Below, piece after piece: positions 3,330 to 57,289 of a stretch of DNA of 57,289 bases. The stretch covers positions 1-57,289 of the forward strand of contig QZIY01000013.1 in the NCBI GenBank assembly GCA_003599175.1. Reading direction: 5' to 3'. Source of the DNA: Candidatus Parcubacteria bacterium (lineage in GTDB: Bacteria; Patescibacteriota; Minisyncoccia; Phycocordibacterales; UBA2100). Each line of letters starts with the position of its first letter. Position 1 is the first letter of the stretch. A program made the position numbers and the translations under genes. The notes under the pieces are model-generated. The model worked only from the letters and a program-made list of their open reading frames with translations. It was not told the DNA's origin and ran no database searches.

Positions 3330-3379
3330 AATAATGGCTAGTGTACGAGTTTTGCGACGAAAAACAAATATATGCAACA

Positions 3380-3388: not shown

Positions 3389-3394
3389 CGCGGC

Positions 3395-42488: not shown

Positions 42489-42500
42489 AATCCAACTATA

Positions 42501-43614: not shown

Positions 43615-43693
43615 ACGTACATAGTATACCGCACACCCACAAAAAACAACACAAAAAAACGGCATCTCACCGCTATCGTTTTTTTAGTGGGTG

Positions 43694-43820
43694 TCAAGCC
43701 GTCAAAAGAAATTCCACGATAAATCGTGTACCCTTCCCTGCCCCACTGCTTAATCGCCCCGAAATAGTTGCCGATATGGAGCGCCCCGGAGGGTTGCAAG
43801 CCAGTCAATAACCGTTGCAT
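43694..43820 (-). pseudogene. chimeric fossil: 5' fragment of a second trpS fused out of frame to a histidine-kinase 3' end fragment
   Basis: 43820-43743 encodes MQRLLTGLQPSGALHIGNYFGAIKQW (compare the real TrpRS N-terminus). 43744-43694 encodes, in another frame, GAGKGTRFIVEFLLTA*, matching the end of the HK at 49026 (about 28/31 nt identical over the core). Confidence 0.6.
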
Positions 43821-43931
43821 GAAGGGCATTGTAGCAGAAAATGACTCGCCGGTTAGGCGTTCAAGAGAACTTTACTAAAGCTACTTTAAATTGCATAATA
43901 GAAAAAGTTCAAATCAATCGGAGCTTGATCG

Positions 43932-44945
43932 ATGCCTACAGAACGAATCGTCACGGCAGGTCTCAATGGCCTTGGGCGTTTTGGTCTCAATCTGTTGCGC
44001 TGGTGGCTACAAGACGCGAATGCGTCGTATGAAATTCGGTACATAAATGATCCGGGTCTCTCGCCTGAGCTCATTCTGCAGATCCTGAAGACTGATGACG
44101 TTGTGGATGAATTTCAAAGCTGCTCCTTGCAGCTGGAAGGTGATGTACTGCGGATCGATGCGCCGAATCGAAGTGTGTCGGTGAAATTGTCACAAACAAA
44201 GCTCGCCGAGGTCCCGTGGCGCGGCGCTGTTCATATGGTGCTCGAGTGCACAGGAGTACCCAAACGGGGTAGCGAATGCTGGCCACTTCTTCGAGGTCAA
44301 ACGGAGACCATACTCTTATCGGCCAATATTCCCGAGGTTGATGCCACGCTGCTCTACGGTTTTAACCATACGGAATACGATGCGCGGTTGCACAAGGTAA
44401 TATCCTTTGGCTCCTGCACCTCGCATCCGGCGGTACTGCTTACAACGGCAATTGCGAAACAATTTGACGTGCGCGACTGCCTCGTCAACATTATTCACAG
44501 TGTGCCGCAGAGGTATATCAGCTCCGGCGCATTTCAGACGCTCTCAAGGAAGTTTTGCACGCTTGAACGCACGGGTCCCATGCTGCTGCCCACTATGCGT
44601 CCAGATCGCTTCAAAGTGAATTATACTTTCGTTCCTTGGGGTGGAGCATCGATAATGGACTTCGCCTTTCGATTTAAGCCCCGGAGTCGGAAACCGCGTG
44701 ACAAGGATGAGGCAATAGCTCATATGCGGAGCCAGATTGCTGGCGCATTGAATGGATTGTTCGAGCTAGTGCCTGAAGATCCCGGACCTCAACCCTTCGT
44801 GCGTTCGTCTCTATCCGGAAGTATCGTCGAATCGAGTTTCGATTTGCGGGGTGATACGCTGCATTTCTTCCTGTACACCAACAACGAAGGAAGCAGCATT
44901 CGGATGCATGAGCTCGCATCCTATATCGCGGGCAGATTGCCGTAG
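43932..44945 (+). CDS. highly divergent GAPDH-family dehydrogenase
   Basis: LNGLGRFGLN (compare INGFGRIGR), INDPGLSPELILQILKTDD, SFGSCTSHPAVLL (compare SNASCTTN, catalytic Cys kept), NIIHSVPQ. SD GGAG lies 9 nt upstream. Confidence 0.65.
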   Translation: MPTERIVTAGLNGLGRFGLNLLRWWLQDANASYEIRYINDPGLSPELILQILKTDDVVDEFQSCSLQLEGDVLRIDAPNRSVSVKLSQTKLAEVPWRGAVHMVLECTGVPKRGSECWPLLRGQTETILLSANIPEVDATLLYGFNHTEYDARLHKVISFGSCTSHPAVLLTTAIAKQFDVRDCLVNIIHSVPQRYISSGAFQTLSRKFCTLERTGPMLLPTMRPDRFKVNYTFVPWGGASIMDFAFRFKPRSRKPRDKDEAIAHMRSQIAGALNGLFELVPEDPGPQPFVRSSLSGSIVESSFDLRGDTLHFFLYTNNEGSSIRMHELASYIAGRLP

Positions 44946-45007
44946 CATTTTGAGTTCTTGAACCTTCAGTCCCCGCGTGCCATGCTTGCATGCGGGGACA
45001 AAATTTT

Positions 45008-45760
45008 ATGACTCCTATTAAAAAAATATCCTTTACAAATTCCCGAAATATATCGCTTGTCGGAAGTTTTTTTGATGCCGCATCAGATCGCGGAGTCGTA
45101 ATGGCGCATGGTTTTTATGGCGACAGAACTCGTCACGGGCGTTTTGATGCGCTCGGGTCAGCGTTGCAAAATAGGGATATAGCCGCACTGTCTTTCGATT
45201 TCAGTGGGTGCGGAGAAAGCGGTGACGACACGATTGATATTGAAAAGGAGGTCGATGATATGCATGCTGCGATTGCGTGGCTCCGTGCACAAGGTAAAAC
45301 TCGCATCGGCTTACTTGGCTATAGTCTTGGAGCGCTGATTGCGGCTCGCGTGTGGAGCGAGGATATTCGCTGTCTCGTCCTTTGGGCGCCGGTATCGCGC
45401 ACCAAAAATGACCCGAGGAAAGGATTTTCTCAGGAAGAGCTGGCAGAGCTTGATGCAAAAGGATATATCACCAAGCACCTTAGAAGCTCCAGCCGGTCTA
45501 CCGTTGTTATTGATAAGGATTATTTGCCGCAAAGGAAAGCAGTCGATCAGAAAACGTTGTTAGAGAATATTACGTCACCAGTCCTGATAATGCATGGGGA
45601 TGCAGATGAAAAACAGTCGATAGAAAATTCAATCTCTGCTATGCAGTACCTCAATCAAAACTCGAAATTAGAAATTATTAAGGGCGGCAAACATGACCTT
45701 ACTGCACATATGAAGCAATATATTGATCTCTCGGTGGGGTGGTTTATAAGACACCTTTAA
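45008..45760 (+). CDS. alpha/beta-fold hydrolase
   Basis: VVMAHGFYGD, nucleophile elbow GYSLGA, and late MHGDADE and H. The start at 45008 avoids the hairpin TCCCCGC...GCGGGGA. Confidence 0.8.
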   Translation: MTPIKKISFTNSRNISLVGSFFDAASDRGVVMAHGFYGDRTRHGRFDALGSALQNRDIAALSFDFSGCGESGDDTIDIEKEVDDMHAAIAWLRAQGKTRIGLLGYSLGALIAARVWSEDIRCLVLWAPVSRTKNDPRKGFSQEELAELDAKGYITKHLRSSSRSTVVIDKDYLPQRKAVDQKTLLENITSPVLIMHGDADEKQSIENSISAMQYLNQNSKLEIIKGGKHDLTAHMKQYIDLSVGWFIRHL

Positions 45761-45846
45761 TTGTTTGGTTGGCAAAGGTGTCAGGCACCATTTTTTAGCA
45801 ATAACCATTGTATGAAGATTATTCCAGCGAAAAACGGCCGAGAGAG

Positions 45847-46200
45847 CTATCTCATGCTTTTGTACTCGAGTCTTTTGATACGACGCTCATGATCAATCAC
45901 TTTGACCGAGTCTTTGTCTATAGCGCGCGAAATCCCACGTACGGTAGATTCAAGAGCATCAAACCGCTTGTCATGTTCGAGTTGCCCATGTCTTAAGTCG
46001 CGAACATCTTCAAGCACATCTTCCAGCATCTTGTTGTGTGTCACTAGAACGTCTTGTTGGAGGTTCAGGCGCTTATCGATACCATCAAAACGCTTGTCTA
46101 CGGAGTCAAATCGAACCTCAATTCGCTCGAAATGCTTCTTCATAAAGCCCATGAGTTCATCGAGACGATCGTCAGTTGATCGAGGATTCTTCCTTGTCAT
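45847..46200 (-). CDS. small coiled-coil protein, paralogue family member (117 aa)
   Basis: ISRAIDKDSVKVIDHERRIKRLEYK is 15/23 identical to the 15968 ORF block. Confidence 0.6.
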   Translation of the reverse strand: MTRKNPRSTDDRLDELMGFMKKHFERIEVRFDSVDKRFDGIDKRLNLQQDVLVTHNKMLEDVLEDVRDLRHGQLEHDKRFDALESTVRGISRAIDKDSVKVIDHERRIKRLEYKSMR

Positions 46201-46219
46201 GCAAAAGAGTATATCACGG

Positions 46220-46294
46220 TCAGATGAGTGGGAATTGGACGATAAATCGCGTGCCTTTCCCTGCTCCTTCGCTTTCCGCCCAGATTTTAAGCCG
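46220..46294 (-). pseudogene. orphan histidine-kinase 3' end (last 24 codons + stop)
   Basis: Encodes RLKIWAESEGAGKGTRFIVQFPLI*. About 70 nt align with the 3' end of the intact HK (49026-49094). It begins immediately after, and in frame with, the TAA of the DapF-like gene. Confidence 0.7.
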
Positions 46295-47044
46295 TTATGT
46301 AGTAATCAAACTTCCAGCGCGCTTACCTCGAATAGGAGCTTCAATTTTTAGCATGCCACCTCGTATTTCAGTTCGAAAAATTGCGCCACTAGGCTGTTTT
46401 ATGCGAAGTTTGCGCACGCCCTCAAGTTTCCAACAGCGGTAAGCTAAAGCAGCTGTGCCAGAGGCACATGCCGTTTCGTCGTAAAGTGTACGAATATCTC
46501 GTACCCATACAGTGGCGGTAATTTCGTATGCACCCTCTCTTGTCTTCTTGTACCCGATGACACCGGACGCTTTACGGGATAAGAGGTGCTTCGAACGCAA
46601 CATCTCTTTTGCCTTTCTTTTAGTGATACTTCTCGAATTGAGTATGTGTGTTATTCCAGGAAGTGAGCAGACATCTTTTTTAATGCGAAAGGCACTTAAG
46701 GGGAGAGTTACGGAGGATTTTCTCTGAGAGGCCTGTACTTTGACTGGCTCGCGCAAACCACTCGTTTCTAAGAAGAAAGATTTTTTTTTGTTGATAATCG
46801 ACGCAAGTGCACGTGTTGCATTCCCGCAAAATTCACCTCCCGCCATTTCTAATCTTCCAGCCGCCTTCTGTGTTTTTGCAGGCATCCAAAAACCAACTTG
46901 TTCTACTTTTTTGTTCGCATGAAGCAGATTGAGTGCGATTCTCTTCCTCTTTGCAATATTAAAAACTCCCGGCACTATTGCCGTTGTGTTCCCTCCTGGA
47001 TCTACAATGAAATATGGTATTTTTTTGCTCATGTCAGAAAACAA
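46295..47044 (-). CDS. DapF-like (diaminopimelate epimerase fold) epimerase/racemase
   Basis: Two pseudo-symmetric active-site Cys motifs: MAGGEFCGNATRALA and DETACASGTAALA. Confidence 0.6.
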   Translation of the reverse strand: MFSDMSKKIPYFIVDPGGNTTAIVPGVFNIAKRKRIALNLLHANKKVEQVGFWMPAKTQKAAGRLEMAGGEFCGNATRALASIINKKKSFFLETSGLREPVKVQASQRKSSVTLPLSAFRIKKDVCSLPGITHILNSRSITKRKAKEMLRSKHLLSRKASGVIGYKKTREGAYEITATVWVRDIRTLYDETACASGTAALAYRCWKLEGVRKLRIKQPSGAIFRTEIRGGMLKIEAPIRGKRAGSLITT

Positions 47045-47110
47045 GCGGACCCGTTGCGTGAAAGAATACTAACAGAAAGGTCCCAGTTTCTTAAGCGCAT
47101 GTAACTAGGC

Positions 47111-47143
47111 AAGAAAGACACCTCCGCTGCGAACGGAGGTGTC
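47111..47143 (-). terminator. rho-independent terminator after the ATP-grasp gene
   Basis: Minus strand GACACCTCCG-TTCGCAG-CGGAGGTGTC followed by TTTCTT. Confidence 0.6.
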
Positions 47144-47166
47144 AAAACGGCGCCCACATAACTGCA

Positions 47167-48363
47167 TTAGGCCGCAATGATAGGCATTTGTATGCAGTCT
47201 GGTGCTCCGTGAACTATTTTTTCAGGTCGGCCAGTGATTTTCATCCCTGCAACACCGTCTTTTTGCGCGTACACCGTCAGTCGGAAGTAATACGGTGAAC
47301 GAACTCGCTCATTACCATCGAAGACGATAACATCGAACGGTTTCTGATCGATTTCCTCTTGGATGATCCAGAGTGGTTTTTTAGCGTTGCGCTGTCCCCG
47401 AACGATTCGACTAAACATTTCGCCCTCGTCATATCGCACAATACCCTTGCATCCTGAGGAGCAGGTTGCCTTCAGGATGAAGCGTTTGTGTGTACTTGGC
47501 GGCGTGAAGGTGCATTTTTCGAGTTCCCCAGTGAGAAGAGCGGTTGCCGGTATGAGTCCTTGGAAACTTGGCTGGTTTGCGAAATACGGCAAGAATGCTT
47601 TTGACCCCAAATACGCCTTTGGTGGGTAGACAGCATACGTGTCGCCTTCTGTATATCGACGCAAAAGCTGATCACGTATGGCAGGCGTACGATCCAAATT
47701 CTCTGGGATGCACAGTACTTGTGATATATCCCTCACGCTGACCATGTCACGTTCGCGGAGGGTGTTAATTGAGATACCGCGTTCGCGTAAAAAACGCGAA
47801 AGTACATCATAGGACGTCTCATAATACATCTCCTTCTCGGACACGATGATGTGCCATTTTTCGGCCGCGTTAAGGTACTTTCCGAGCGCGTCAGTAAGTA
47901 TGCGCCCCGGGTGCATACCGGCGAGGAGTGCGATGGAATCCATGAGCGCAATGGTGCCGAGCGCGCGCGGGTTGTACGTGTCAATCTCGAGTACTTGCCA
48001 CCCGCTGTCAATACCATAGGCGAAATCAATCTTCACCATTGGCGGGACATCGTCGCATACGCTTCTGCCTGGCAGTGATAATCCATGTGAGGCAATTTTT
48101 GCCTGACGCAGGAAGAATGCTTCGTCATGCAGCAGACTCTTTTTCTGTCCGAGTACGTGGAGGTTTCGCTCGAGATTCTCAACAGCGGCATAAATGTTAC
48201 TCGCGGTCGCGGTAAGCGCTTCGCTGTCCAACACGAGCGCTGCGGGAGTGAGAGTGCAAGCATGTCGTGTACGTCTTTCAACTGTTTCCCAGTAGCCAGA
48301 ACGAACGAAATGTGCCTGAACATCATCAGGGGCCAAACCCAGGTCGATGACTGAAGGAAGCAT
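47167..48363 (-). CDS. glutathionylspermidine-synthase-like ATP-grasp amide ligase (tentative)
   Basis: MVKIDFAYGIDSGWQVLEIDTYNPRALGT (compare R.DF....g..kllEyNaDtP), YPPKAYLGSKAFLPYF, LKATCSSGCKGIV, WIIQEEI. Called from memory of PF03738-like patterns. Confidence 0.5.
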   Translation of the reverse strand: MLPSVIDLGLAPDDVQAHFVRSGYWETVERRTRHACTLTPAALVLDSEALTATASNIYAAVENLERNLHVLGQKKSLLHDEAFFLRQAKIASHGLSLPGRSVCDDVPPMVKIDFAYGIDSGWQVLEIDTYNPRALGTIALMDSIALLAGMHPGRILTDALGKYLNAAEKWHIIVSEKEMYYETSYDVLSRFLRERGISINTLRERDMVSVRDISQVLCIPENLDRTPAIRDQLLRRYTEGDTYAVYPPKAYLGSKAFLPYFANQPSFQGLIPATALLTGELEKCTFTPPSTHKRFILKATCSSGCKGIVRYDEGEMFSRIVRGQRNAKKPLWIIQEEIDQKPFDVIVFDGNERVRSPYYFRLTVYAQKDGVAGMKITGRPEKIVHGAPDCIQMPIIAA

Positions 48364-48446
48364 CGCTCAACCTTTTCTGTTGTGTGAAAGAGCAAGATGC
48401 CTCTTGGGCATCGCGCTGTCGGCTAGCTTGGCCAACAGCGCGCCGC

Positions 48447-48911
48447 TCACAAGGTAACACCAATCAAGGGCAAAACCTCTCTGAGGTGGGTGATAGTTTG
48501 CCACGGGGTATCGCTGACGGTCGCAGGTTCAAGGTCGGCAAATTTGCCCGATTTTAGCCAGATGGTCCGCATGCCCGACTGATTGCCTGAACGTATTTCC
48601 TTATGGAGATGGTCTCCAATCACATAGACATCTTTTGGCTGCAGATTCGTGTCCCGCAGGATCTCGAAGAAAAGAGCGGGTTCTTTTCGCTCCACAAAGA
48701 ATGTTTTTTGAAAGTAGTTCGCAAGACCCATCTCTTCTAAGACCTGCGGCCTGCTCTCTTCTGCCTTGGAGACAAGGTACATAGGGACTTGCTTTTCGTG
48801 AAGGAATCGAAGCAGGTCCTCAGCGCCGTCGATAAAATCATTTCGATCGGGATCATAAATAGTTCGGTTGAAATCAAAAATAACGGCTAAGCCGTTTTCT
48901 TTAGGATTCAT
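48447..48911 (-). CDS. HAD-superfamily hydrolase (motif I reads DFNRT)
   Basis: AVIFDFNRTIYD (motif I with Asn at the second Asp position), LVSKA, VIGDHLHKEIRSGNQSGMRTIWL. Confidence 0.75.
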   Translation of the reverse strand: MNPKENGLAVIFDFNRTIYDPDRNDFIDGAEDLLRFLHEKQVPMYLVSKAEESRPQVLEEMGLANYFQKTFFVERKEPALFFEILRDTNLQPKDVYVIGDHLHKEIRSGNQSGMRTIWLKSGKFADLEPATVSDTPWQTITHLREVLPLIGVTL

Positions 48912-49025
48912 ATAGTAAAGCTTAGTACGATTGCTCGTGATTTAAAAGCTCTTAAGGATAAATGATAACATGGTTTTATTGGCAGGTCGCAAGTTGTTTT
49001 CCGGACTGTGGATAACTAGAATGCC

Positions 49026-50672
49026 TTAGGAAAGCGGAAACTGAACGATAAATCGCGTGCCCTTCCCTGCCCCTTCGCTCTCTGCCCAAATTTTGCCGCC
49101 GTGGGCATCGACGATTTGTTTTGCGATGAAAAGGCCGTAGCCGGTCGAATGCACATTGATCTTGATCGAATCCTTGCCATGGCCGCCTTCGGTAAAAAGA
49201 TGCTTCATATCTTCTGGGGTAATGCCGATGCCGGTATCTTCGACGAGCATCTGCGCAAGATCGCCTTGTTTTGAAAGCGTGATGGTGACTGAGCCATGCT
49301 CCGTGTATTTGATCGAGTTGTCGATCACATTGCGAATCACGTGTCGTGCGATTTTATCTTTGTCCCCATTGATCGTGAGAACTTCCGCTGCAGGGTGGAA
49401 CTGGAGCGAGAGTCCACGTGCAGCTGCGGACTCTTGTAAATCATTCACCGACTCTTCGACAGTTTTCCCAAAATCAAAATTTTCTTTTTTATACGCCACC
49501 GTTCCCTTTTTCATATTGGACGCATCCAAAATATCCATGATCGTACTCACGCCCTTGCGTACCTCGGTGAGCGCCATCTGAGCCATGCCCTTCAAATCCT
49601 GCGAGACGTCGCCATAATCACCTTCGACGATCGCGGCAAACCCCGCTTCGCTCTTAGTAAGATACCCCTTCACCTCGTGGCTCATAAAGTGAAGGAGATT
49701 TTCTTGCTGTGCATTGGCAATCTCGAGTTCTCTTGCCTGTTTCTCGATAAGTTCGCGTTGCTTCACTTCTTTTTTTACACTCCGGATGAGGACCAGACCG
49801 ATTGCCCCGGTTAAGACGAGCGTTACTCCGATCAGCACGACGTTGTAAATATTATCGGCAAATGTAAACATCGATGCGATGAGAATAACGAGCGCAATAA
49901 CGAGTGCCTGTGCAGCAAGCATGCCGACGTTGAATGTTTTAAACCGTACAATCAGAGCCGCAATAAATGCCATAAATATGGGCATGCCAAAGAGCCCATA
50001 CAGCTCAATTCGAGAGTCTTTGAAAAGACCGATGTCAATGAGATATGAGGCCAAGAAGACCAAAGTGAAGAACAGGAAGAGGAAGAGTTCAATACCAAGA
50101 CCCATGTATACGATTTGCTTCCGGAAATCCGCTGTTGTCGTGCGATATCGGTGGACCAGGAGTCCAAGGATCCAGATCATGGCTATAGCTCCAAGCGAAA
50201 CGTAGTAGTACTTGTACCAGAATCCTTCGAAGAGGAACGCATCGCAATTTGTGAGATCAAAGCCCGCGACATTCCAGTCGGTCGGCGCAAGCAGGATCAT
50301 GGGGAGCATCAGCGCCAAAAAAACACCCTTGAGTTTTGGTGATACATCTTTTTCATACAGAAAGACATAGATGAAGTAGATGCTGAATATCGAAATCAAA
50401 CTCGAAAGGATGCGCAAGAACGACCAGGAGAAGAGTAGTGAGTCGCTATTCACGTTGGTCCACAGCGTGAGATTGATCGAGCACCAGAGCGAAAAGCTAA
50501 GCGCAATGACCAAAAGAAGTCGGCTCAATAAGAGATGCCTTGCGTTGAGGAATACGAAGAGCCCGACAAGAAGTGCGACGACGATTGCAGGAATATGTGA
50601 GTAGTACAAGAGCTCAGGTACGCCTTCCGCAAAAATAAAGAATGTCGGCTCTGGAAAATATGGACAGATCAT
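49026..50672 (-). CDS. sensor histidine kinase with ~8-TM N-terminal domain; no response regulator nearby
   Basis: H-box HFMSHEVKGYL, N box DNSIKYT, G1 DTGIGI, G2 GYGLFIAK. Confidence 0.9.
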   Translation of the reverse strand: MICPYFPEPTFFIFAEGVPELLYYSHIPAIVVALLVGLFVFLNARHLLLSRLLLVIALSFSLWCSINLTLWTNVNSDSLLFSWSFLRILSSLISIFSIYFIYVFLYEKDVSPKLKGVFLALMLPMILLAPTDWNVAGFDLTNCDAFLFEGFWYKYYYVSLGAIAMIWILGLLVHRYRTTTADFRKQIVYMGLGIELFLFLFFTLVFLASYLIDIGLFKDSRIELYGLFGMPIFMAFIAALIVRFKTFNVGMLAAQALVIALVILIASMFTFADNIYNVVLIGVTLVLTGAIGLVLIRSVKKEVKQRELIEKQARELEIANAQQENLLHFMSHEVKGYLTKSEAGFAAIVEGDYGDVSQDLKGMAQMALTEVRKGVSTIMDILDASNMKKGTVAYKKENFDFGKTVEESVNDLQESAAARGLSLQFHPAAEVLTINGDKDKIARHVIRNVIDNSIKYTEHGSVTITLSKQGDLAQMLVEDTGIGITPEDMKHLFTEGGHGKDSIKINVHSTGYGLFIAKQIVDAHGGKIWAESEGAGKGTRFIVQFPLS

Positions 50673-51115
50673 AGGTGAAGAATGTCCTCTCGAGGTGTAG
50701 TTGTAGCGTCCGTATGTTCAATTGAAGGAGCCTCTGGGATTGTTTCGACCACTCCAAAATTTTCAGCTGTAATGATCTCGCACAATTCGCCATCGATATC
50801 TGGATCGCAATAGAACTTTACGCAGTTGGTGTCATTTGTCGGCAGGCAGTGGTTGATTGACTCGCAGTCGGCGATGTACTTTCCGCACTGCGCGTACACA
50901 TCCGCCGCCGGTTTTTCTATAAGTGCATAATAGTACGTTGAAAGACACTCGTCGTCTTCGCAGCCAATGAAGCAGCTCGATGTTGCGGCATCGCATTCTG
51001 CTTCGTAGGCGACGACGTAATCACGCGCAACCATAAAGCGCGCATAGCCGACTACAACGACGAGAAGAATGAGTGCAACAAGCGAGTACTCGAAAAAATA
51101 TTCGCGAAATTTCAT
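50669..51115 (-). CDS. membrane-anchored Cys-rich extracytoplasmic protein (148 aa)
   Basis: One N-terminal TM helix, then 11 Cys in about 100 aa. Its stop overlaps the HK start (ATGA). Confidence 0.55.
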   Translation of the reverse strand: MKFREYFFEYSLVALILLVVVVGYARFMVARDYVVAYEAECDAATSSCFIGCEDDECLSTYYYALIEKPAADVYAQCGKYIADCESINHCLPTNDTNCVKFYCDPDIDGELCEIITAENFGVVETIPEAPSIEHTDATTTPREDILHL

Positions 51116-51175
51116 ATCGCAGGAGATCGCTCAAGTATAGCAGGAGTAGCCTCGCCAATATGACCACCTGTGCAA

Positions 51176-51706
51176 TCAGTGTGATTTTTTCGACTCGTTG
51201 ATTTTTTCTTCTATGAAATATTGGAAATACCCTTTGTACTTTTCCTGCAAATCGGGCTTCTCCCAGTCCGTGTCGGTAATCGTCTTTCGGCACGACTTCG
51301 TTCCACAGAGACAGGCGAGGCTGTAGGGCTTTGCGTTTTTGGAGCGAAAGAGTGTCATCGCGTAATCGAACGTAACCTCCTCCCCTTTCTGTATACCGCG
51401 CATTGCGACTAGAAAAATCTGACCTTTTATGCCGGCATTTGGGTCGCAGCTGTGGTTGAAGAAATTAATCCCACCGAGCTCCCCCTTCTTCGACGCGCAA
51501 ATCGAGAGATCTTCGGTGACCTGTATACCATTGTCTTGTAAACCCTCTGGTAATTGTTCTTCATCCTCAAGTCTCATCACGTAGCCTGAAAGGACGAGGA
51601 GACGCTCACCCTTTTTAATGTCGGCAACGGCAAACGTGCCGCGGTCATACTTTTCTGTATCCTTGACCTCGAGTTTGGGATTCAGCCAGTAGAATGCGTG
51701 TTGCAT
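51176..51706 (-). CDS. SET-domain (lysine) methyltransferase with post-SET Cys cluster
   Basis: NFFNHSCDPNA, EEVTFDY, CLCGTKSCRK. Start set at Met 51706 to clear the EamA gene. Confidence 0.8.
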   Translation of the reverse strand: MQHAFYWLNPKLEVKDTEKYDRGTFAVADIKKGERLLVLSGYVMRLEDEEQLPEGLQDNGIQVTEDLSICASKKGELGGINFFNHSCDPNAGIKGQIFLVAMRGIQKGEEVTFDYAMTLFRSKNAKPYSLACLCGTKSCRKTITDTDWEKPDLQEKYKGYFQYFIEEKINESKKSH

Positions 51707-51752
51707 AGGGACATGTGGTTGATCGATACTATAGCAAAAACCTACATGAGTA

Positions 51753-52679
51753 TCATATCCCGCCCGAGAGGAAGAGAAGATACGTCCCAAAAATAACAAT
51801 GCTCATAGCAAGTGCTTTCTGTACGAGGTGCTTGAGGTGAATTTTTTCTCTTGTGAAGTTTGGAAAAAAGAGAGTCAAAAAAATGCCTATGGCGAGTACA
51901 AAAATGGGCTGGAACGAGTCAACAAGGAGTATGAGGGAAATCGGGCCCAAAAGGTATGCGAACGAAAAGACTATATTGCCTAAGATATAGAGACCTTCAT
52001 TCAAAAAATTGAGAGACAGAATTGGAGCAGAGTTTGTTCGTAGCGCCGTTAAAAAATGCCGACGGTAAGACGGAATGCATGCAAATAGAAATACACCGAC
52101 GAGCACCAGCGTAAGATGTTCCCAAAAAAGTGATCGCCACACATTTTCCTCAAGCGCGATGTACTTGAAGAGCACCGAGCCAAGAGCCCAGAAGAAGGAG
52201 GCCGCAAGCATGAGCGTCACTGTTTCGCGACGAAGTTTGAAATTGTTCTCCACATCGATTTCAAATGAAATGATCGTCGCGCCCAAAATAATGATTGTCA
52301 TAGCAATAAACTGGAAGTGTGAAATCGTTTCGCTCAAGAGAAAGTAGCCCAGAATCAAGCCAAACACGGGTACAAGTTGGTAAAACACTATGGCAACAGA
52401 GGCCTCTTCCTTCCTAAGCGCGAGGAGATAGCACCACAGCACGGCCACATTGAGAATGCCAACCATCGCGAGCATAAAAACATGCTTTGAACTTACCGTG
52501 AGCGCTTGCGGGTCTGCCCAAAAAATAAACGGCAGAGCGGCGCCAGAAAGAAGCGACGAAAAGAGGACCAGCGTTCCGACACCGCCTTGTTTGAAGTGTT
52601 TATCGAGGAGATGTTTGTCGATGTGATTCGTGAGCGCATAGAGAAAGGGCCCAATGAGCGCAAAGAGAAACCAGCTCAT
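51753..52679 (-). CDS. EamA/DMT-family transporter (10 TM)
   Basis: Two EamA-like halves. Hydrophobic throughout. Confidence 0.85.
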   Translation of the reverse strand: MSWFLFALIGPFLYALTNHIDKHLLDKHFKQGGVGTLVLFSSLLSGAALPFIFWADPQALTVSSKHVFMLAMVGILNVAVLWCYLLALRKEEASVAIVFYQLVPVFGLILGYFLLSETISHFQFIAMTIIILGATIISFEIDVENNFKLRRETVTLMLAASFFWALGSVLFKYIALEENVWRSLFWEHLTLVLVGVFLFACIPSYRRHFLTALRTNSAPILSLNFLNEGLYILGNIVFSFAYLLGPISLILLVDSFQPIFVLAIGIFLTLFFPNFTREKIHLKHLVQKALAMSIVIFGTYLLFLSGGI

Positions 52680-53614
52680 ACAGTGATTTCCCGCTGTGTT
52701 TCAGAAACGATGTATTTCTTGAGAAATTCCGCGGGATGGTATGTACTCTTTGCCTTGCGCAGACCCTCCATATCGAGATCTTGCTCCCAATTCCACAGCT
52801 GCACGTTGTGCTTCAAGAGGTGCTGCGCAATTTTTTCGTTCATAAATTCATATATTCCCTTGTATTCGACATCTCCCTTAACAAAGTGAGAAATTGCGTA
52901 CGGTTTTTGCACAATCTCGTCGATTCCAAATCCAATAATGGCGTCCTTCCAAAAAACGCACGATACGAAAATGTCGCCTCCCCGAGCGAGAGCTTCCGCA
53001 TGGGCAAGAAGTCGAAGAATTGCCGCTTCCTCATGGGCAAGATCGTAGGCGCTGTTACGTGCCTTTTTCCGCTCGCCCCATCTTCGAAAGAGTGTCATCA
53101 GGTGTGGGTGGATGCTCGCATCTGTAATAGGCCGAATCTCAAATCGAGCTTCAGGGTGGAGCTCCGGAAATGTCCGCGCAAGACGATGTTTTACCTTCAG
53201 TCCCGCGTTTTCCGAGTTGGCGAGCTTTTCGATGGCATATACATAATCAAAATTGCGCCTATCTTCCCGCACAGTTAACCCTGATGTTTCGAGTTGTCGT
53301 GCGGACTCCTCCGGCACAAAATGCAGTTCTGGCCTCATCCCGGATGATTTTGCGAACTCCAAAAGCTTGTAAGCGGTATCCGGGCACTCATTCGTACCGA
53401 TAAAAGAAAGAAAGGACTCGCTCGTCACATAATCGGTAAATAAAAGAACGAGGTTGCCATTTAGATCACATATACTCCCCTTTTCCAGGAGATTCCACTC
53501 CCAAAGATTGGTGAAATTGAAATCCGAATACGGCTTGAAACGAACAGTATACGTTCCTACCTCAGCCCTTTGATCGGCCCGTATTTTTTGGAAGTCCGGA
53601 AACGAAGAGATCAT
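52676..53614 (-). CDS. DUF2156-like (MprF C-terminal-type) aminoacyl-tRNA-dependent transferase domain protein
   Basis: FNFTNLWEWN..., DYVY, KHRLARTF, HFVKGDVEYKGIYEF, NWEQDLDMEGLRKAKSTYHP follow the DUF2156 pattern (N.eqDlG..gLr..K.sy.P). Called from memory. Confidence 0.6.
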   Translation of the reverse strand: MISSFPDFQKIRADQRAEVGTYTVRFKPYSDFNFTNLWEWNLLEKGSICDLNGNLVLLFTDYVTSESFLSFIGTNECPDTAYKLLEFAKSSGMRPELHFVPEESARQLETSGLTVREDRRNFDYVYAIEKLANSENAGLKVKHRLARTFPELHPEARFEIRPITDASIHPHLMTLFRRWGERKKARNSAYDLAHEEAAILRLLAHAEALARGGDIFVSCVFWKDAIIGFGIDEIVQKPYAISHFVKGDVEYKGIYEFMNEKIAQHLLKHNVQLWNWEQDLDMEGLRKAKSTYHPAEFLKKYIVSETQREITV

Positions 53615-53666
53615 ACTGTTGGAGTTGTTGTGATGAAGAGTACCACGTGTAAGAATACTAATATGT

Positions 53667-54500
53667 TTATTGTTGCGGCTTGCTTTCCAAGGCAAGAGCC
53701 GCGTCTATTTTTTGCACGTTTTGCGCTACCGCATCATGGAACGTCGCAATCCCCTCGCCCGCGACAGCCGGATCGTTGCCCGGATAGCTGTGGAGCCACT
53801 CTTCCTTGCTGATGTTTTGTACCTGCGCCCATGCTTTTTGGACACGTTCGTGAGCTTTCTCTATGTCCCCTATTTCATAGAGAGCGATTGCGCTCGAGTT
53901 GAGGAGCCATGGATTTTCCGGAAAATGTTTCAGGCCCTCTTCGGTTGCACGAGCAGCTTCTTCGAATCGCTCGTCCTTAAGAAGCACCCACGCATAGTCA
54001 TTGATCGCCGCCCAGTTGTATGGAGCAACTTTCAAAAACTTTTCATAATCTTCCGCCGCGCTCGCATAGTCGCCCATATACCCTTCGATCAATCCCCGCA
54101 CGTAGTATGAATTGGGGGTGTCTTTGCCGTGCTTTTGGATTTGCAGATTGATATGAAAAAGTGCGGTACTAAAATCACCCTTCAAAAACGCGACTCGTGC
54201 CAATTGGTGATGCACATAAAGTAGATTGGGGTCTAACTTGACTGCCTGTTTCAAAAACGTCTCCGCTGCCTGGATATCATAGTGGCGAGGATCTTCTCCA
54301 TCCATATGCTGTGTCCCATATTTGTATGCACGGTCCCCAGACGGATCAATTTTCATCATGAGTCGCTCGTGTGCTATTTGCAACGTGAGCGGCGCCGAAG
54401 TTTGTGTTGTAATGACAGCAAGGATGAATACGATCACGAGACCACCCGTAATCCAGCGCAAATCAATCGAGGAAAAATTTTTCTTGCGCATACTATTCAT
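53667..54500 (-). CDS. TPR-repeat protein with N-terminal membrane anchor
   Basis: TM helix WITGGLVIVFILAVI followed by about 5 TPR-like repeats. Confidence 0.8.
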   Translation of the reverse strand: MNSMRKKNFSSIDLRWITGGLVIVFILAVITTQTSAPLTLQIAHERLMMKIDPSGDRAYKYGTQHMDGEDPRHYDIQAAETFLKQAVKLDPNLLYVHHQLARVAFLKGDFSTALFHINLQIQKHGKDTPNSYYVRGLIEGYMGDYASAAEDYEKFLKVAPYNWAAINDYAWVLLKDERFEEAARATEEGLKHFPENPWLLNSSAIALYEIGDIEKAHERVQKAWAQVQNISKEEWLHSYPGNDPAVAGEGIATFHDAVAQNVQKIDAALALESKPQQ

Positions 54501-54939
54501 TTACCTGCGTCCTCGCGTTTTCAATAGGCAGACCTTCTATCATCCAATTGCGCAACCCTCCCTCAATACGCCGCAAATTGAGAAAGCCTTGATGCTCGAG
54601 GTAGCCGTACGCAACGCCGGAGAGGCTGCCTCCCGTGCAAATGAGTACAATCGTCTTCCCTTTTTTTGGAAGTTCTCCATGTCGCTCAAAAAGTTTCTGG
54701 ATAGGAATATTAACTGAGCCTTGGGCGTGATTTTCTTCGTAATCCGCGACTTGGCGTACATCGATAAACAGATAGTTGTCGGGGTTTGCGCGGTAGTCTG
54801 TCCAGAATTCCACCGGATCGATGTCATTCGTCACTGGCTGGATGATATTCAAATTTTTGAGTGGCGTCAGATAGATCGCAAGCACGGTAACAACTATCGA
54901 TGCTATCGTCGGACCAACAATGACGTATGTATTTTTCAT
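54493..54939 (-). CDS. membrane-anchored rhodanese-domain protein
   Basis: Rhodanese layout with active-site loop LICTGGSLSG. Confidence 0.8.
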   Translation of the reverse strand: MKNTYVIVGPTIASIVVTVLAIYLTPLKNLNIIQPVTNDIDPVEFWTDYRANPDNYLFIDVRQVADYEENHAQGSVNIPIQKLFERHGELPKKGKTIVLICTGGSLSGVAYGYLEHQGFLNLRRIEGGLRNWMIEGLPIENARTQVNE

Positions 54940-54951
54940 GCAAACAGTGTA

Positions 54952-56580
54952 CTACACGTTTTCTTCCTTGTGCGGAGCCTTGTATTTCGAATATCTACCG
55001 GGCGACATAATATTGTCCGGATCCAACGCTTTTTTAATTTTCTCCGCCGTCTGCCAAAACGGATGATCCATATCCACGACCATATCCATCGCCGACGTAG
55101 GTGCGCGATACACATAAATACCCTTTTCTTTACACTTCACAAATAACTCCCGATAGCATGCATGCGCCCGCCTCGTCTCTTCTGGATCGTTTTTGTCAAA
55201 AAGTATCGGCAATGACATTCGAAGACATCGATCGGAAAAATTATTAAATGAAATCAGCGGTTCTATAGCATGTGTTGCGCAAATTTTTTCAGAAATCCTT
55301 ATTGCCTCTTCGACATAACTGCGAGAAATCGGTAAAACAATTGAGAAGAAGATTAACCCAGCATGTATATCGCGATCGTAGTCATTGTTTTCTACATTCG
55401 ACAGAAGTCGACCGCGTTTCCAAAAAGGCAACCTTGGTTTTTTAAAAGGCAGCATGCCAGAGCTAACTCTCAAGTAAGATCTCAATACAATTAGAAACAA
55501 AAATCGCTGACGGATTTTGGCAGGCAATTTCCTACAAAAAAACTCCATCCAACGAATTTTTTTATCATGTGCGAACATTATTTTTTGTGAGAACAATCGT
55601 CGCAATGATGTATGGGCCGCTTCCACAACTGGCCTCTCACCCTGCAATGTCCCGAGTATGATCCATCCGTCAAGTGAATGCAGTTTCAAAGCTTTTGTAA
55701 CAGAAGCGGGATCGAGAACGCCATTGTCAAGCACGTCTGCTTTAGAATATTCCTTTAGACGTGAGAAAGTGGTTGTAGGGCTTTGAATTCTAATACTTGT
55801 CAGAGTTGATCCAAGTGCAAAAAAAGCTTTTTGAATCAATGGAATAATTTTACAAAATTCTTCATATCTCTTGATACGTATCATGAAAACCTCCGTTCTT
55901 TCTGGAATTGGAGCAAGAGAAATTGTCATACGCGTTACGATCCCGAATCCACTTTCTCCAAATAAACCGTCAATATATGGTCCAACACCCCATCTAAAGA
56001 ATCCTCCTGTCGTCGATTCGTCTGCGAATGCAGAACGGTACACTGATCCATCTGCTAAAACCGCTTCAATATGCATGATGGTTGAAAACCGATCAATAAT
56101 GGCAGATGCACCATTACCTCTATCAAGGGCATTGCCGACAATGCTGACATTCGGTCCGGCGATCGACACAGGCGGCATATAAGGAGCGGAATTGCTAATC
56201 AAATAATCATGTAATTGCTTCGCTGTCACTCCTGGCTCAATGGTAATCAAACCTGAGTCAACGTCCATGTGTACAATCTTATTCATTTTTGAAAGATCAA
56301 GGACGATACAGGAGTCATCTGAAGGTACACGACTCCCATAGCCCCAATTATTGCCAATGCTTATTGGATACAGCGGAATTCTTTGCTTGGCGGCAATTTT
56401 TACAATCGCCGCGACTTCATAAGCATTCAAAGGGAAAGCGACGCCAATTATCTTCCTTTTTTTTGAACTGAGGGTTGAGGTTGTATATTTCTCTAATTTT
56501 TCTTGCGCCGTGAAAACTCTCTCGGTGCCCAAGGCGATCGCCAACTCTTCCAGTGCTTGCCGTCTCCTATCTGTAAGCAT
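54952..56580 (-). CDS. FAD-binding (PCMH/FAD_binding_4) oxidoreductase
   Basis: N-terminal FAD-binding module (VAFPLNAYEVAAIVKIAAKQRIPLYPISIGNNWGYG) and C-terminal ALDPDNIMSPGRY. Confidence 0.85.
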   Translation of the reverse strand: MLTDRRRQALEELAIALGTERVFTAQEKLEKYTTSTLSSKKRKIIGVAFPLNAYEVAAIVKIAAKQRIPLYPISIGNNWGYGSRVPSDDSCIVLDLSKMNKIVHMDVDSGLITIEPGVTAKQLHDYLISNSAPYMPPVSIAGPNVSIVGNALDRGNGASAIIDRFSTIMHIEAVLADGSVYRSAFADESTTGGFFRWGVGPYIDGLFGESGFGIVTRMTISLAPIPERTEVFMIRIKRYEEFCKIIPLIQKAFFALGSTLTSIRIQSPTTTFSRLKEYSKADVLDNGVLDPASVTKALKLHSLDGWIILGTLQGERPVVEAAHTSLRRLFSQKIMFAHDKKIRWMEFFCRKLPAKIRQRFLFLIVLRSYLRVSSGMLPFKKPRLPFWKRGRLLSNVENNDYDRDIHAGLIFFSIVLPISRSYVEEAIRISEKICATHAIEPLISFNNFSDRCLRMSLPILFDKNDPEETRRAHACYRELFVKCKEKGIYVYRAPTSAMDMVVDMDHPFWQTAEKIKKALDPDNIMSPGRYSKYKAPHKEENV

Positions 56581-56672
56581 GCGCTAAAAGTAGCATAAAC
56601 AAAACGACCGCTCCTCCGTGGAGTGCGGCCGTGCCCGATGTGCGCTCGAGCTTTGGGGAAAGATGGGACGAC

Positions 56673-57086: not shown

Positions 57087-57289
57087 AATCGCCAACTCCT
57101 TCTGCGATTCGGACAATGAGCTTCAGTAGCCCATCATTCCTGCTGCGTAATACAGCAATATTAATAAAATGTCAATGAAGATGGTGCTAGTGTCAGAGCA
57201 AAGCGATTAGTGCATCTTGTGGAGTTTTAGCGGGCGTTGTGTGATTTTTTCGCAGTTTCTGCGGCCGCTGCCTTGCGCCACGGATGACC

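Follow-up and report, generated by a model that had tools for sequence, protein, structure and literature searches.

The window analysed here, a stretch of 57,289 nucleotides, constitutes contig C1 of a tiny Candidatus Kaiserbacteria (CPR) genome, a metagenome-assembled genome (MAG) of 40 contigs with 88% completeness. Towards its right end, twelve open reading frames (ORFs) run on the minus strand from a FAD-linked oxidase gene to a gene for a small coiled-coil protein (56580 down to 45847), and the ORF listing and translations bear out the extent and order of this run as described in an earlier note drawn up from the letters of the DNA. The domain calls of that note (FAD_binding_4, Rhodanese, TPR, LPG_synthase_C/DUF2156, EamA, SET, HATPase_c and HAD) hold in Pfam, its DapF-like gene proves to be a CntK_N family member with both catalytic cysteines, and no mobility-family match was found among the proteins scanned, as it had also stated. 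The overlaps or gaps of at most 60 nt that it reported apply to the right eight genes, whereas the left four are separated by 83-134 nt. The features of the locus, from right to left, are as follows.

57191..57287, no strand: terminal repeat of 97 nt, recurring unchanged at the ends of contigs C25 and C5
56673..57116, minus: secr147, a predicted exported protein of 147 aa with a signal peptide
54952..56580, minus: VAO/PCMH-type FAD-linked oxidase (Pfam FAD_binding_4)
54493..54939, minus: single-domain, membrane-anchored rhodanese (Pfam Rhodanese; active-site Cys loop LICTGGSLS)
53667..54500, minus: membrane-anchored TPR protein (TPR Pfams), with which the YcaO cluster ends
52676..53614, minus: stand-alone DUF2156/LPG_synthase_C protein (Pfam, 1e-22), with which the conserved backbone begins
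51753..52679, minus: EamA/DMT permease (Pfam EamA), part of the backbone
51176..51799, minus: SET-domain protein (Pfam SET)
50669..51115, minus: membrane-anchored Cys-rich acidic protein of 148 aa, adjacent to HK
49026..50672, minus: HK, a polytopic orphan histidine kinase (HATPase_c)
48447..48911, minus: small HAD-family hydrolase (HAD Pfams), fixed partner of the ATP-grasp ligase
47167..48363, minus: CPR-specific ATP-grasp ligase of the glutathione-synthetase/glutathionylspermidine-synthetase fold (predicted structure)
47117..47143, minus: strong terminator-like hairpin with a 12-bp stem, between the ATP-grasp and racemase genes
46295..47044, minus: PLP-independent racemase/epimerase of the CntK/DapF fold (PF26317 CntK_N), the DapF-like gene; likely start ATG 47032
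46227..46288, minus: fossil 2, an orphan copy of the HK 3' end (85% nt and 21/21 aa identity to 49033-49094)
45847..46200, minus: cc117, a coiled-coil protein of 117 aa, native to the HK-trpS interval
43932..45760, plus: gene pair for a divergent GAPDH-family protein and an alpha/beta hydrolase (Pfam)
43704..43838, minus: fossil junction of a trpS 5' copy (43756-43838) and a third HK 3' end (43704-43765), out of frame (repeats, alignments)
42501..43436, minus: trpS, the anchor of the locus (Pfam; true start ATG 43436)

The stretch is poorer in GC (46.9%) than the rest of the window (52.3%) or the genome (52.5%), lying at the 4.7th percentile among the genome's 10.7-kb windows, and stretches of still lower GC occur on contigs C22, C2 and C15. 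The spot values quoted in the earlier note are exact (35% at 55441 and 61.7% at 36001), but they contrast extremes, since 60-nt lines have a SD of 7.9%. Tetranucleotide usage is ordinary (24th-40th percentile of correlation). Codon usage deviates in two of the twelve genes, those of the FAD oxidase (97th percentile; GC3 at the 2nd) and the racemase (94th; its GC3, at the 1st percentile, is the lowest of the stretch), and the HK, Cys-rich, SET and HAD genes are among the genome's most typical (1st-8th percentile), HK being the most typical of its length class. No deviation in k-mer or codon usage thus extends across the run, an outcome that the earlier note had itself named as speaking against its proposal of an acquired island and that largely does so. 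The "foreign expression signals" it described were not borne out, an SD-like motif being absent from 68% of the genome's genes and the genes of the stretch being alike in this respect. Runs of at least twelve genes on one strand number seven in this genome of ~900 genes.

Genes of a SagB/YcaO-type cluster at the contig end

Gene order on other contigs indicates that secr147, the FAD oxidase, the rhodanese and the TPR protein are the tail end of a SagB/YcaO cluster of LAP type whose head lies on contig C23. The cluster is contiguous on three external contigs (L047, L051 and L052), with the order DUF1194-SagB-AMMECR1-YcaO-small-orf377-AMP-binding-orf149-FADox-orf87-Rhod-TPR on L047 and with SagB-AMMECR1-YcaO-...-FADox repeated on the other two. 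The first seven L047 genes are matched at 47-78% by C23:8753-16663, a segment that extends to the end of C23, and the remaining ones, orf87 excepted, are matched at 39-74% by the end of C1. The head on C23 comprises a SagB-type dehydrogenase (TIGR03605, 125 bits, above cutoff), an AMMECR1-fusion protein and a SagD-type YcaO protein (Pfam, 176 bits), followed by genes for an 84-aa membrane-anchored Cys-rich acidic protein, a ~400-aa anchored helical protein and an acyl-CoA-ligase-like enzyme. The 84-aa protein is an uncertain candidate for the precursor of the cluster, given that the prediction places its Cys-rich part on the outer side. Contig C23 presumably joins the end of C1, so that the cluster would continue beyond the window; a sequence overlap between the two ends was sought and none was found. 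The 97-nt end repeat is the likely reason why the assembly breaks inside the cluster.

The nearest homologs of the FAD oxidase (55%, 41% and 41% identity) lie on L047, L051 and L052, just downstream of SagB-AMMECR1-YcaO-small ORF-~370 aa, and in the single congener where it was found (G074) the gene again stands beside YcaO; it appears to be an accessory enzyme of this SagB-AMMECR1-YcaO cluster subtype. The rhodanese and the TPR protein are 74% and 71% identical, respectively, to their L047 counterparts and have paralogs on C24 (52% and 73%), that of the rhodanese lying next to a second YcaO cluster. The two form a genus-wide pair accompanying 45 of the 57 YcaO loci in congeners; a TPR homolog occurs within 10 kb of 45/57 such loci and is carried by 44 of the 45 YcaO-bearing congener genomes. 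As for secr147, it is 39-40% identical to orf149, whose neighbours on L047 are the AMP-binding gene and the FAD oxidase. The GC-rich secreted gene that the earlier note placed at the right border is indeed the GC-richest of the genome (GC 62.4%; GC3 81.8%, 100th percentile), but it would be a cluster member and not a border: because both it and the FAD oxidase belong to a YcaO cluster continuing on C23, the supposed border falls in the middle of another cluster.

The conserved block and the interval upstream of trpS

The synteny further to the left suggests that DUF2156-EamA-Cys-rich-HK-trpS is an old, genus-conserved backbone that has been vertically inherited. This order, followed by the aminoacyl-tRNA synthetase (aaRS) gene, is found on G111 and L058, EamA-Cys-rich-HK-trpS on G125 and G018, and DUF2156-EamA-Cys-rich-HK on L055 and L056 at 50-80% identity; for the DUF2156 protein, which has an aminoacyl-tRNA-dependent transferase fold, conserved order on G111, L055, L056 and L058 goes with 33-75% identity. 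An alternative start of this ORF, TTG 53695, is possible. The EamA permease is 59-80% identical and syntenic in G111, G125, G018, G011, L055 and L056. The Cys-rich protein has no Pfam match; the stop of its gene overlaps the HK start (ATGA), and their adjacency is kept in G111, G125, G018, L055, L056 and L058. In the genome studied, orf106 and a class II Asp/Asn-type aaRS gene come after trpS, the product of which is 62-74% identical in all relatives, the alignments starting at about residue 16 of the TTG-started ORF. Every relative's locus with upstream sequence has an HK match upstream of trpS on the same strand, mostly directly adjacent, and HK appears to be the ancestral neighbour of trpS; no response regulator was found on C1. 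The GC content of the homologous block is 0.6-5.8 points below that of the neighbouring aaRS genes in six of six relatives (GC 48 to 60%), and the dip therefore belongs to the genes themselves and does not point to recent import.

The SET gene represents a single-gene insertion into the spacer between EamA and the Cys-rich gene. In G111, G125, G018, L055 and L056, the two follow each other after ~40-120 nt with SET absent; many members of the genus have SET paralogs, which lie directly upstream of HK in G123, G014, G019 and G073.

The HK-trpS interval, to judge from its changing content, is a recombination hot spot with the HAD and ATP-grasp genes, the racemase and the coiled-coil gene as cargo. 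It holds cc117 alone in G073 and G048 (orthologs at 45-53%); PEP-mutase-like, TPP-decarboxylase-like and TauE-like genes (labels taken from translations, without an HMM check) plus ATP-grasp-HAD in G011; and HisRS-like, SLOG, TrpR-like and orf335 genes, then the racemase (73%) and an aldolase, downstream of HK on L056. A cc117 paralog lies at C1:15971-16186. The GAPDH-like/hydrolase pair, with orthologs of either gene found in 0/115 congeners, adds lineage-specific cargo to this hot spot. This pair falls outside the coordinates of the earlier note.

The HAD gene adjoins an ATP-grasp homolog in G011, G022, G113, G012, G119 and L054. The ATP-grasp call of the earlier note has no match in Pfam or NCBIfam but is upheld by an AF2 model (pLDDT 93) with TM of 0.6-0.66 to glutathione synthetase/GspS/YjfC folds (Foldseek matches 8fbz, 2hgs, 7uk6 and 2io8; E 1e-13 to 1e-9); among its 58 homologs, the four with source names given all come from Patescibacteria-group bacteria. 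The racemase retains both readable catalytic Cys motifs (GEFCGNATR and ETACASGT) and reaches 5e-16 and 8e-15 against the NCBIfam histidine racemase models, below the model cutoffs.

The gene fossils that the earlier note placed at the left border are real, and we regard the two orphan HK 3' ends and the one trpS 5' end as true insertion scars. The trpS copy covers residues 10-41 at 69% identity (tblastn), the third HK 3' end retains a 29-mer core with 2 mismatches, and the copies at this junction appear as direct repeats D1 and D2. All three genomic occurrences of the HK 3'-end 29-mer lie in the window (0 expected by chance), and orphan HK 3' ends are present in L056 and G022 too.

Origin of the stretch

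We consider it probable, at roughly 0.8, that the stretch is a mosaic whose units evolve independently and merely share a strand. Unit 1 (53667-57116 and past the window end) would be the far end of a peptide-maturation cluster of the LAP/TOMM type. In the biochemistry that we infer, YcaO and SagB would form azol(in)es on Cys/Ser of a small peptide, the VAO-type flavoprotein would oxidize the peptide further, and the exported rhodanese, TPR protein and 147-aa protein would provide extramembrane sulfur/thiol handling or scaffolding. Unit 2 (49026-53614), comprising the DUF2156 transferase, EamA permease, Cys-rich ectoprotein and orphan sensor kinase, with one SET gene inserted, is probably an envelope-modification and sensing module. 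Unit 3 (43482-48911) would be the hot-spot cargo, i.e. the HAD and ATP-grasp amide-ligase pair, the CntK-like racemase, the coiled-coil gene and the opposite-strand GAPDH-like/hydrolase pair; successive replacement or insertion via illegitimate, possibly homology-anchored, recombination may have left the two kinase 3' ends and the trpS 5' end. Against a mosaic count the below-average GC and common strand of all units. The boundary between units 1 and 2 is also tight (the DUF2156 ATG lies 52 nt from the TPR stop, and the TTG start would give an overlap of 29 nt), so that read-through transcription and some co-regulation may cross it.

It is improbable that the whole stretch was inherited vertically and nothing was acquired, with the patchiness due to differential loss as the lineage was streamlined and the low GC due to membrane or weakly constrained genes. 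CPR genomes are known for gene loss, every homolog carrying a name is from CPR, and the conserved GC dip and ordinary k-mers fit vertical inheritance, but the orphan HK 3' ends and the chimeric trpS 5'/HK 3' junction are products of insertion or replacement rather than simple loss, and SET occupies a spacer intact in five relatives. Frequencies of 0-1/115 for four genes would, moreover, demand very many independent losses, and the codon usage of the FAD oxidase and racemase is deviant.

Quite unlikely is also a true attachment site at the kinase 3' end, with integrase-less cassettes captured site-specifically, as in tRNA-gene or integron integration, and the repeats serving as attL/attR. The 29-nt core is kept with at most 2 mismatches in all three copies here and both on L056, even where frame-broken, the repeats directly flank the HAD-ATP-grasp-racemase cargo and the locus varies in several genomes; yet the fossils differ in length (~53 and 86 nt here, 78 nt on L056, 108 nt in G022), so that the breakpoints are not at one position, the copies are 15-39% diverged, and none of the scanned proteins from the locus or its surroundings was identified as a recombinase. 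On L054, furthermore, a complete short kinase comes after the ATP-grasp pair, and fossil 2 may thus be all that is left of a second kinase since deleted.

The proposal of the earlier note, one horizontally acquired, functionally coherent twelve-gene island for envelope or partner-interaction chemistry, is largely refuted and very unlikely to hold. Several genes are accessory and the left edge bears insertion scars, as it supposed, and the low GC, single strand, close spacing and absence of housekeeping functions of the run are compatible with it; the genes are nevertheless neither one unit nor one functional system. Our comparison with 115 congeners and metagenome contigs found the FAD oxidase in 1 congener, the DapF-like gene in 1, the ATP-grasp in 5 and DUF2156 in 6, where absence means "not found" and is not proof, at most 4-7 candidates having been scored per genome and many congeners being incomplete MAGs. 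No congener has more than one of these four rare genes or more than one sub-block of the stretch, which argues against a single coherent acquisition. The middle block is syntenic in relatives and shares their GC dip, ten of the twelve genes are typical or hyper-typical in codon usage, the right edge lies inside the YcaO cluster, and a terminator and variable cargo interrupt the run. A chimeric contig with a low-GC part from another organism, conceivable for a 40-contig MAG whose end repeat recurs on two other contigs, can be dismissed as extremely improbable, with the HK-trpS-aaRS junction spanning the supposed boundary in synteny with more than 20 relatives, and with tetranucleotide and HK codon usage fitting the genome.

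LAP clusters are already known in CPR bacteria, and serial-displacement loci are known to carry orphan 3'-end scars.

Three components in one co-directional run

The twelve minus-strand genes that occupy positions 45847-56580 of contig C1, which the window covers in full, are a composite. They combine the tail of a gene cluster of a kind known from CPR, the LAP-type YcaO cluster, with a block inherited vertically and a hot spot marked by gene-end scars. The genome to which the contig belongs comprises 921 kb in 40 contigs, is 88% complete and has a GC content of 52.5%; the few source names attached to homologues place it in Candidatus Kaiserbacteria (Patescibacteria/CPR). All twelve ORFs are present, from 56580 down to 45847, in the order described in the earlier note, and Pfam bears out eight of its domain calls (FAD_binding_4, Rhodanese, TPR, LPG_synthase_C (DUF2156), EamA, SET, HATPase_c and HAD).

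Features of the window referred to below
56673-57116, 147-aa exported protein (secr147)
45847-56580, minus strand, twelve genes: FAD oxidase, rhodanese, TPR, DUF2156, EamA, SET, Cys-rich protein, histidine kinase (HK), HAD, ATP-grasp, racemase, coiled-coil protein (cc117)
49026-50672, minus strand, orphan histidine kinase (HK)
46227-46288, orphan HK 3' end
45847-46200, minus strand, cc117
43704-43765, third HK 3' end, joined to a 5' copy of trpS

The run had been proposed as a single horizontally acquired, functionally coherent island. That it is co-directional and AT-richer is real (46.9% GC versus 52.3% in the remaining window, the 4.7th percentile of equal-sized windows of the genome), but such an island is not. 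Stretches of lower GC occur on at least three other contigs, and co-directional runs of at least 12 genes number seven in this genome. The values of 35% and 62% GC quoted for single 60-nt lines are correct, but such lines have a standard deviation of 7.9%. As for the compositional hallmarks of a genomic island, GC is low but k-mers are ordinary (for composition-normalised tetranucleotides the correlation with the genome falls at the 24th-40th percentile) and codon usage is deviant in just two of the twelve genes, the FAD oxidase and the racemase. These two are extreme in GC3 (2nd and 1st percentile, respectively) and high in Karlin-type codon-usage distance (97th and 94th percentile); the codon usage of the HK, Cys-rich, SET and HAD genes is hyper-typical (1st-8th percentile of distance).

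No foreign expression signals, another feature ascribed to the run, were seen: 68% of the genes in the genome lack a Shine-Dalgarno-like motif and those of the run are alike in this respect. Scans for sigma-70-like promoters and terminators returned no enrichment relative to shuffled sequence. TATACT/TATAGT-like boxes lie 7-15 nt 5' of many minus-strand ATGs (e.g. at 46201-46217, 42489-42505 and 51116-51135), and their proximity to the ATG, together with the SD-less starts, suggests that very short leaders or leaderless mRNAs are the norm genome-wide.

The distribution of the genes speaks against a unit as well, with the sub-blocks occurring independently of each other among 115 species-level congeners. 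A DNA-level search of the relatives retrieved only trpS, the HK catalytic domain, EamA and TPR, and protein-level tblastn on the fetched loci was needed.

Occurrence of rare genes among 115 species-level congeners
FAD oxidase: 1/115
ATP-grasp: 5/115, HAD gene always adjoining
DUF2156: 6/115
Racemase: 1/115
GAPDH-like/hydrolase pair: 0/115

No congener (0/115) combines two or more of the four rare genes of the minus strand, which rules out a co-inherited 12-gene system. Integrase and transposase domains were not found among the scanned proteins, in keeping with the earlier statement that no mobility gene is present, and rather than att-type repeats at the borders of the run we found direct repeats that flank only the HAD-ATP-grasp-racemase sub-block and have variable breakpoints. 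For a small CPR genome from an uncultivated organism, a shared strand and AT-richness in a series of non-housekeeping genes are insufficient grounds for calling a genomic island.

A YcaO cluster probably broken between two contigs

The nearest homologue of the FAD oxidase in the window (55% identity) resides on an external contig, L047, in the order DUF1194, nitroreductase, AMMECR1-fusion (607 aa), YcaO, an 80-aa ORF, a 377-aa ORF, AMP-binding protein, a 149-aa exported protein, FAD oxidase, an 87-aa ORF (orf87), rhodanese and TPR. The first seven of these genes are matched, with 47-78% identity, at C23:8753-16663, i.e. on another contig of the same MAG, up to the contig end, and the end of C1 carries secr147 (39-40%), the FAD oxidase, the rhodanese (74%) and the TPR protein (71%), orf87 being absent. 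Given the gene order on L047 and these matches on C23 and C1, secr147, the FAD oxidase, the rhodanese and the TPR protein can probably be assigned to the YcaO cluster. The order nitroreductase-AMMECR1-YcaO-small ORF-~370-aa ORF-X-FAD oxidase recurs on two further external contigs, L051 and L052; linkage of the window-type genes to YcaO is contiguous on L047 and partial on L051, L052 and in the congener G074. In the present assembly the link spans a contig break, and no sequence overlap was found between the ends of C23 and C1. Judging from gene order and similarity, the GC-rich gene at the border and the three 'island' genes next to it appear to belong to one YcaO cluster that the assembly has broken, and the presumed right edge of the island would lie in the interior of that cluster.

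The break falls at a repeat common to the ends of C1, C25 and C5, a 97-nt segment identical at window positions 57191-57287, C25:15832-15928 and C5:47969-48065. In translation the repeat looks like the final part of a small, very basic ORF (...GHPWRKAAAAETAKKSHNAR, then stop), and C23 ends with the beginning of a basic ORF (MAKKKRAARKRKKR...); the assembly may be interrupted here by a small gene or element present in multiple copies.

The YcaO gene itself lies outside the window, at C23:12142-13719 (Pfam YcaO, 176 bits, cutoff 25.7); against TIGR03604 (SagD-type maturase) its product scores 196 bits, slightly below the cutoff of 219. The nitroreductase at C23:9432-10301 is a SagB/McbC-type FMN dehydrogenase (TIGR03605, 125 bits versus a cutoff of 78; SagB-family peptide dehydrogenase in NCBIfam). 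Beside YcaO, an 84-aa ORF (C23:13763-14017) encodes a protein with a membrane anchor at its N-terminus and a C-terminus that is acidic and contains Cys (...ECFSEDPGESACECSAEAAESC); this candidate precursor is 61-62% conserved on L047. Searches with Pfam and NCBIfam did not find an E1-like/RRE (SagC) domain in the AMMECR1-fusion or the ~400-aa protein, and no peptidase or E1-like partner was recognised in the cluster. Unlike those for DnaK, DnaJ and DUF1194 further upstream, the C23 genes from SagB onward are low in GC (GC3 at the 1st-14th percentile). Despite this low-GC setting, secr147 is the most GC-rich gene of the whole genome (62.4% GC, GC3 82%). No YcaO cluster occurs upstream of DUF2156 in the closest relatives (metagenome loci L055 and L056 and congener G111), so the juxtaposition is specific to the present lineage.

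Within the genus, YcaO genes occur in 47 of the 115 genomes. Among the matches listed, a TPR homologue lies within 10 kb of YcaO in 45 of 57 loci and is present in 44 of 45 YcaO-bearing genomes; a rhodanese gene usually adjoins it. The present genome has a second, paralogous YcaO cluster at C24:738-6371 (locus L028).

Paralogous YcaO cluster (gene; position on C24; strand or remark)
SagB-like; 738-1334; -
YcaO; 1441-2643; -
orf377-like; 3268-4305; +
Rhodanese; 5063-5488; 52% to window rhodanese
TPR; 5694-6371; 73% to window TPR, 86% nucleotide identity over 394 nt

In biochemical terms, YcaO would activate backbone amides on a small Cys-rich peptide with ATP and SagB would oxidise the resulting azolines, with the VAO-type flavoprotein, the acyl-CoA-ligase-like enzyme and the AMMECR1-fusion possibly catalysing tailoring steps. 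An outward orientation is predicted for the anchored rhodanese, which has its active-site Cys in place, and for the TPR and 147-aa proteins; the three may serve sulfur or thiol handling or scaffolding of the product at the surface. An unlikely extension of this scheme is that SagB/YcaO and the exported rhodanese-TPR pair, associated across the genus, define an undescribed, CPR-specific class of modified and possibly surface-retained peptides, in which the anchored, Cys-rich acidic 84-aa protein would be the substrate and the rhodanese would supply or handle sulfur (e.g. as thioamide or persulfide), and not a classical secreted LAP antibiotic. The proposed joining of two MAG contigs into one YcaO cluster, and the regular presence of a rhodanese-TPR pair beside YcaO clusters of the genus, provide a defined gene set for testing azole-type products of CPR bacteria.

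An inherited block and a gene-exchange hot spot upstream of trpS

Wherever upstream sequence was fetched for a relative's locus, trpS is preceded on its own strand by a match to a histidine kinase, in most cases right next to it, and the kinase is thus an ancestral trpS neighbour rather than imported cargo. On the opposite side of trpS, the relatives have a class II Asp/Asn-type aaRS. Here that gene (40771-42171, 3' of trpS) has a bimodal similarity pattern, with 71-77% identity in ~10 congeners, 31-38% in ~16 and two intermediates, as though two different Asp/Asn-type synthetases seem to share the same slot. The order DUF2156-EamA-Cys-rich-HK-trpS-aaRS is found in G111 and on the metagenome contig L058, EamA-Cys-rich-HK-trpS in the congeners G125 and G018, and DUF2156-EamA-Cys-rich-HK, at 50-80% amino acid identity, on L055 and L056. 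SET occupies what in five relatives is a spacer of roughly 40-120 nt between EamA and the Cys-rich gene, and is therefore a single-gene insertion; the order HK-cc117-trpS in congeners G073 and G048 indicates that the coiled-coil gene is native to its interval. In 6/6 relatives (locus GC 48-60%) the orthologous block is 0.6-5.8 GC points below the adjacent aaRS genes, i.e. the GC dip is a property of the backbone genes that tracks each host. Directly upstream of DUF2156, L056 carries a kinase H-box fragment (1638-1733; residues 314-345, 75% identical), so the backbone is bordered by an additional kinase scar at its far end.

The DUF2156 protein matches LPG_synthase_C with 81 bits over profile positions 41-297 of 298. 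HATPase_c is detected in the HK with 92 bits, and an H-box-like motif, FMSHEVKG, is readable; C1 encodes no response regulator, all seven Response_reg matches of the genome being on other contigs. The block looks like an envelope module, in which a polytopic orphan kinase would be coupled to a Cys-rich ectoprotein, DUF2156 would act as an aminoacyl-tRNA-dependent transferase without a flippase, and the EamA permease could move the product.

The interval between HK and trpS holds different cargo in different relatives.

Cargo between HK and trpS in relatives
Many congeners: nothing
G073, G048: cc117 only
G011: ATP-grasp-HAD plus PEP-mutase-like, TPP-decarboxylase-like and TauE-like genes (translations read, not HMM-checked)
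G022: HAD-ATP-grasp
L056: HisRS-like, SLOG, TrpR-like, orf335, racemase (73%), aldolase

From translations alone, positions 4909-9090 of L009 (the G011 locus, on its contig C1) hold genes for a TauE-like permease, a 454-aa P-loop-like protein, a TPP-dependent decarboxylase-like protein and a member of the PEP-mutase/isocitrate-lyase family; these would be a phosphonate-type cassette beside ATP-grasp-HAD. In the present genome the order on the coding strand is HK, HAD, ATP-grasp, a strong terminator hairpin, racemase, the orphan HK 3' end, cc117, a hydrolase and a GAPDH-like gene on the opposite strand, the trpS-5'/HK-3' joint and trpS. The GAPDH-family protein (43932-44945) is divergent and matches the N-terminal (NAD-binding) domain only; a Gp_dh_C domain was not found anywhere in this 88%-complete genome, whereas GAPDH genes of the usual ~340-aa kind are present in congeners.

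The ATP-grasp protein is matched by neither Pfam nor NCBIfam, and its family profile gave nothing below E 0.1 against PDB sequences. An AF2 model built from a 34-sequence alignment (pLDDT 93, pTM 0.92) nevertheless has as its top 50 Foldseek PDB matches exclusively GSS, GspS, trypanothione synthetase, YjfC/YgiC or ligase Cp1B, the best with TM 0.6-0.66, E down to 9e-14 and a probability of 1.0, and the alignment has invariant K, D, E, N and R columns. On the strength of the predicted model and these fold matches the ATP-grasp call stands, and a CPR-only family for which Pfam offers no model can now be given a fold. The protein called DapF-like is a member of the CntK_N family (PF26317, precomputed for it and its homologues), with both catalytic Cys motifs readable (GEFCGNATR and ETACASGT); NCBIfam histidine racemase models match it at 5e-16, below their equivalog cutoffs (59 versus 400 bits). 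Racemase, ATP-grasp and HAD are not one cassette: a terminator lies between, the racemase occurs without these partners on L053 and L056, and the only conserved pair is HAD-ATP-grasp. On those two CPR contigs (L053 5457-7732, L056 8480-10686) a TrpR-like gene (Trp_repressor), a ~340-aa Pfam-less ORF and a CntK-like racemase gene form a conserved trio, which is missing from the present genome. The GSS-fold ligase and HAD would probably make a small amide or pseudopeptide; the racemase could supply a D-amino acid but is not a fixed partner.

The gene fossils reported at the left border proved genuine. The kinase 3' end contains a 29-mer of which the genome has exactly three copies, all at this locus and with none expected by chance; the orphan 3' end at 46227-46288 matches that of HK with 85% nucleotide identity and 21/21 amino acids, and the third is joined out of frame to the trpS 5' copy. 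L056 and G022 have orphan HK 3' ends, too. One event that would fit the trpS-5'/HK-3' chimera is the entry of DNA from a related locus that ended inside the donor trpS, with homology further upstream as its anchor and an illegitimate joint in the 3' end of the resident kinase. Comparison of the orphan 3' end at 46227-46288 and the functional HK 3' end with relatives assigned no donor, the sequences being short and highly diverged. This orphan 3' end could alternatively be the remnant of a second, short kinase, such as the one that follows HAD-ATP-grasp on locus L054; under either origin the fossils are, as read from the sequence, scars of replacement. The retained lengths differ (~53 and 86 nt here, 78 nt on L056, 108 nt in G022), which argues against a precise att site, rejected as the main explanation of the conserved 29-mer, and for illegitimate joints. 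Retention of the HK 3' end as a trpS promoter is likewise rejected: the third copy, upstream of trpS, is separated from the trpS ATG by ~270 nt that include a terminator-like hairpin. Replacement scars between HK and trpS are direct sequence evidence of how accessory genes are exchanged, with no recognisable mobile element involved, by CPR bacteria that are symbiotic and possibly competent.

Comparison with known systems

What is new here is the proposed C23-C1 link, the regular companionship of rhodanese-TPR with YcaO in the genus, the fold of the ligase family and the gene-exchange scars between kinase and trpS. LAP/TOMM clusters with YcaO and a nitroreductase-like SagB dehydrogenase have been described as widespread in CPR genomes (Sharrar et al., PMC7298704). 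Compared with these, the present subtype adds the AMMECR1-fusion, the acyl-CoA-ligase-like enzyme, the VAO-type FAD oxidase and the exported rhodanese-TPR pair, its candidate precursor is membrane-anchored through its N-terminus, and its genes are distributed over two contigs of the present assembly. The added genes are absent from the cluster description of Sharrar et al., and we found no literature link between them.

The CPR ligase shares its overall fold with glutathione synthetase, glutathionylspermidine synthetase and Escherichia coli YjfC-YgiC, but differs from them in sequence (11-15% identity), in its fixed HAD partner and in its CPR-only distribution. CntK/HisR histidine racemases and DapF are PLP-independent two-Cys racemases; the racemase of the window resembles them as a CntK_N member with both catalytic Cys motifs but, unlike CntK, has no CntL/CntM neighbours. 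MprF is an aminoacyl-phosphatidylglycerol synthase/flippase, whose LPG_synthase_C/DUF2156 catalytic domain the DUF2156 protein (312-339 aa) covers almost end to end, whereas it lacks the hydrophobic N-terminal flippase domain and is partnered by the EamA permease.

The closest parallel to the scars is provided by arrays of orphaned 3' ends at Rhs, CDI and T6SS effector-immunity loci, attributed to serial displacement by homology-facilitated illegitimate recombination (Kirchberger et al. 2017, Sci Rep, PMC5361080, citing for such recombination de Vries & Wackernagel 2002 and Meier & Wackernagel 2003). As in those arrays, a conserved upstream anchor is followed by variable downstream cargo, older 3' ends are pushed downstream as fossils, and relatives carry different cargo at the same site. 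In contrast to them, the anchor is a sensor kinase beside trpS, the cargo consists of small-molecule enzymes rather than toxin/immunity pairs, and one of the scars is a chimeric trpS 5'/HK 3' joint.
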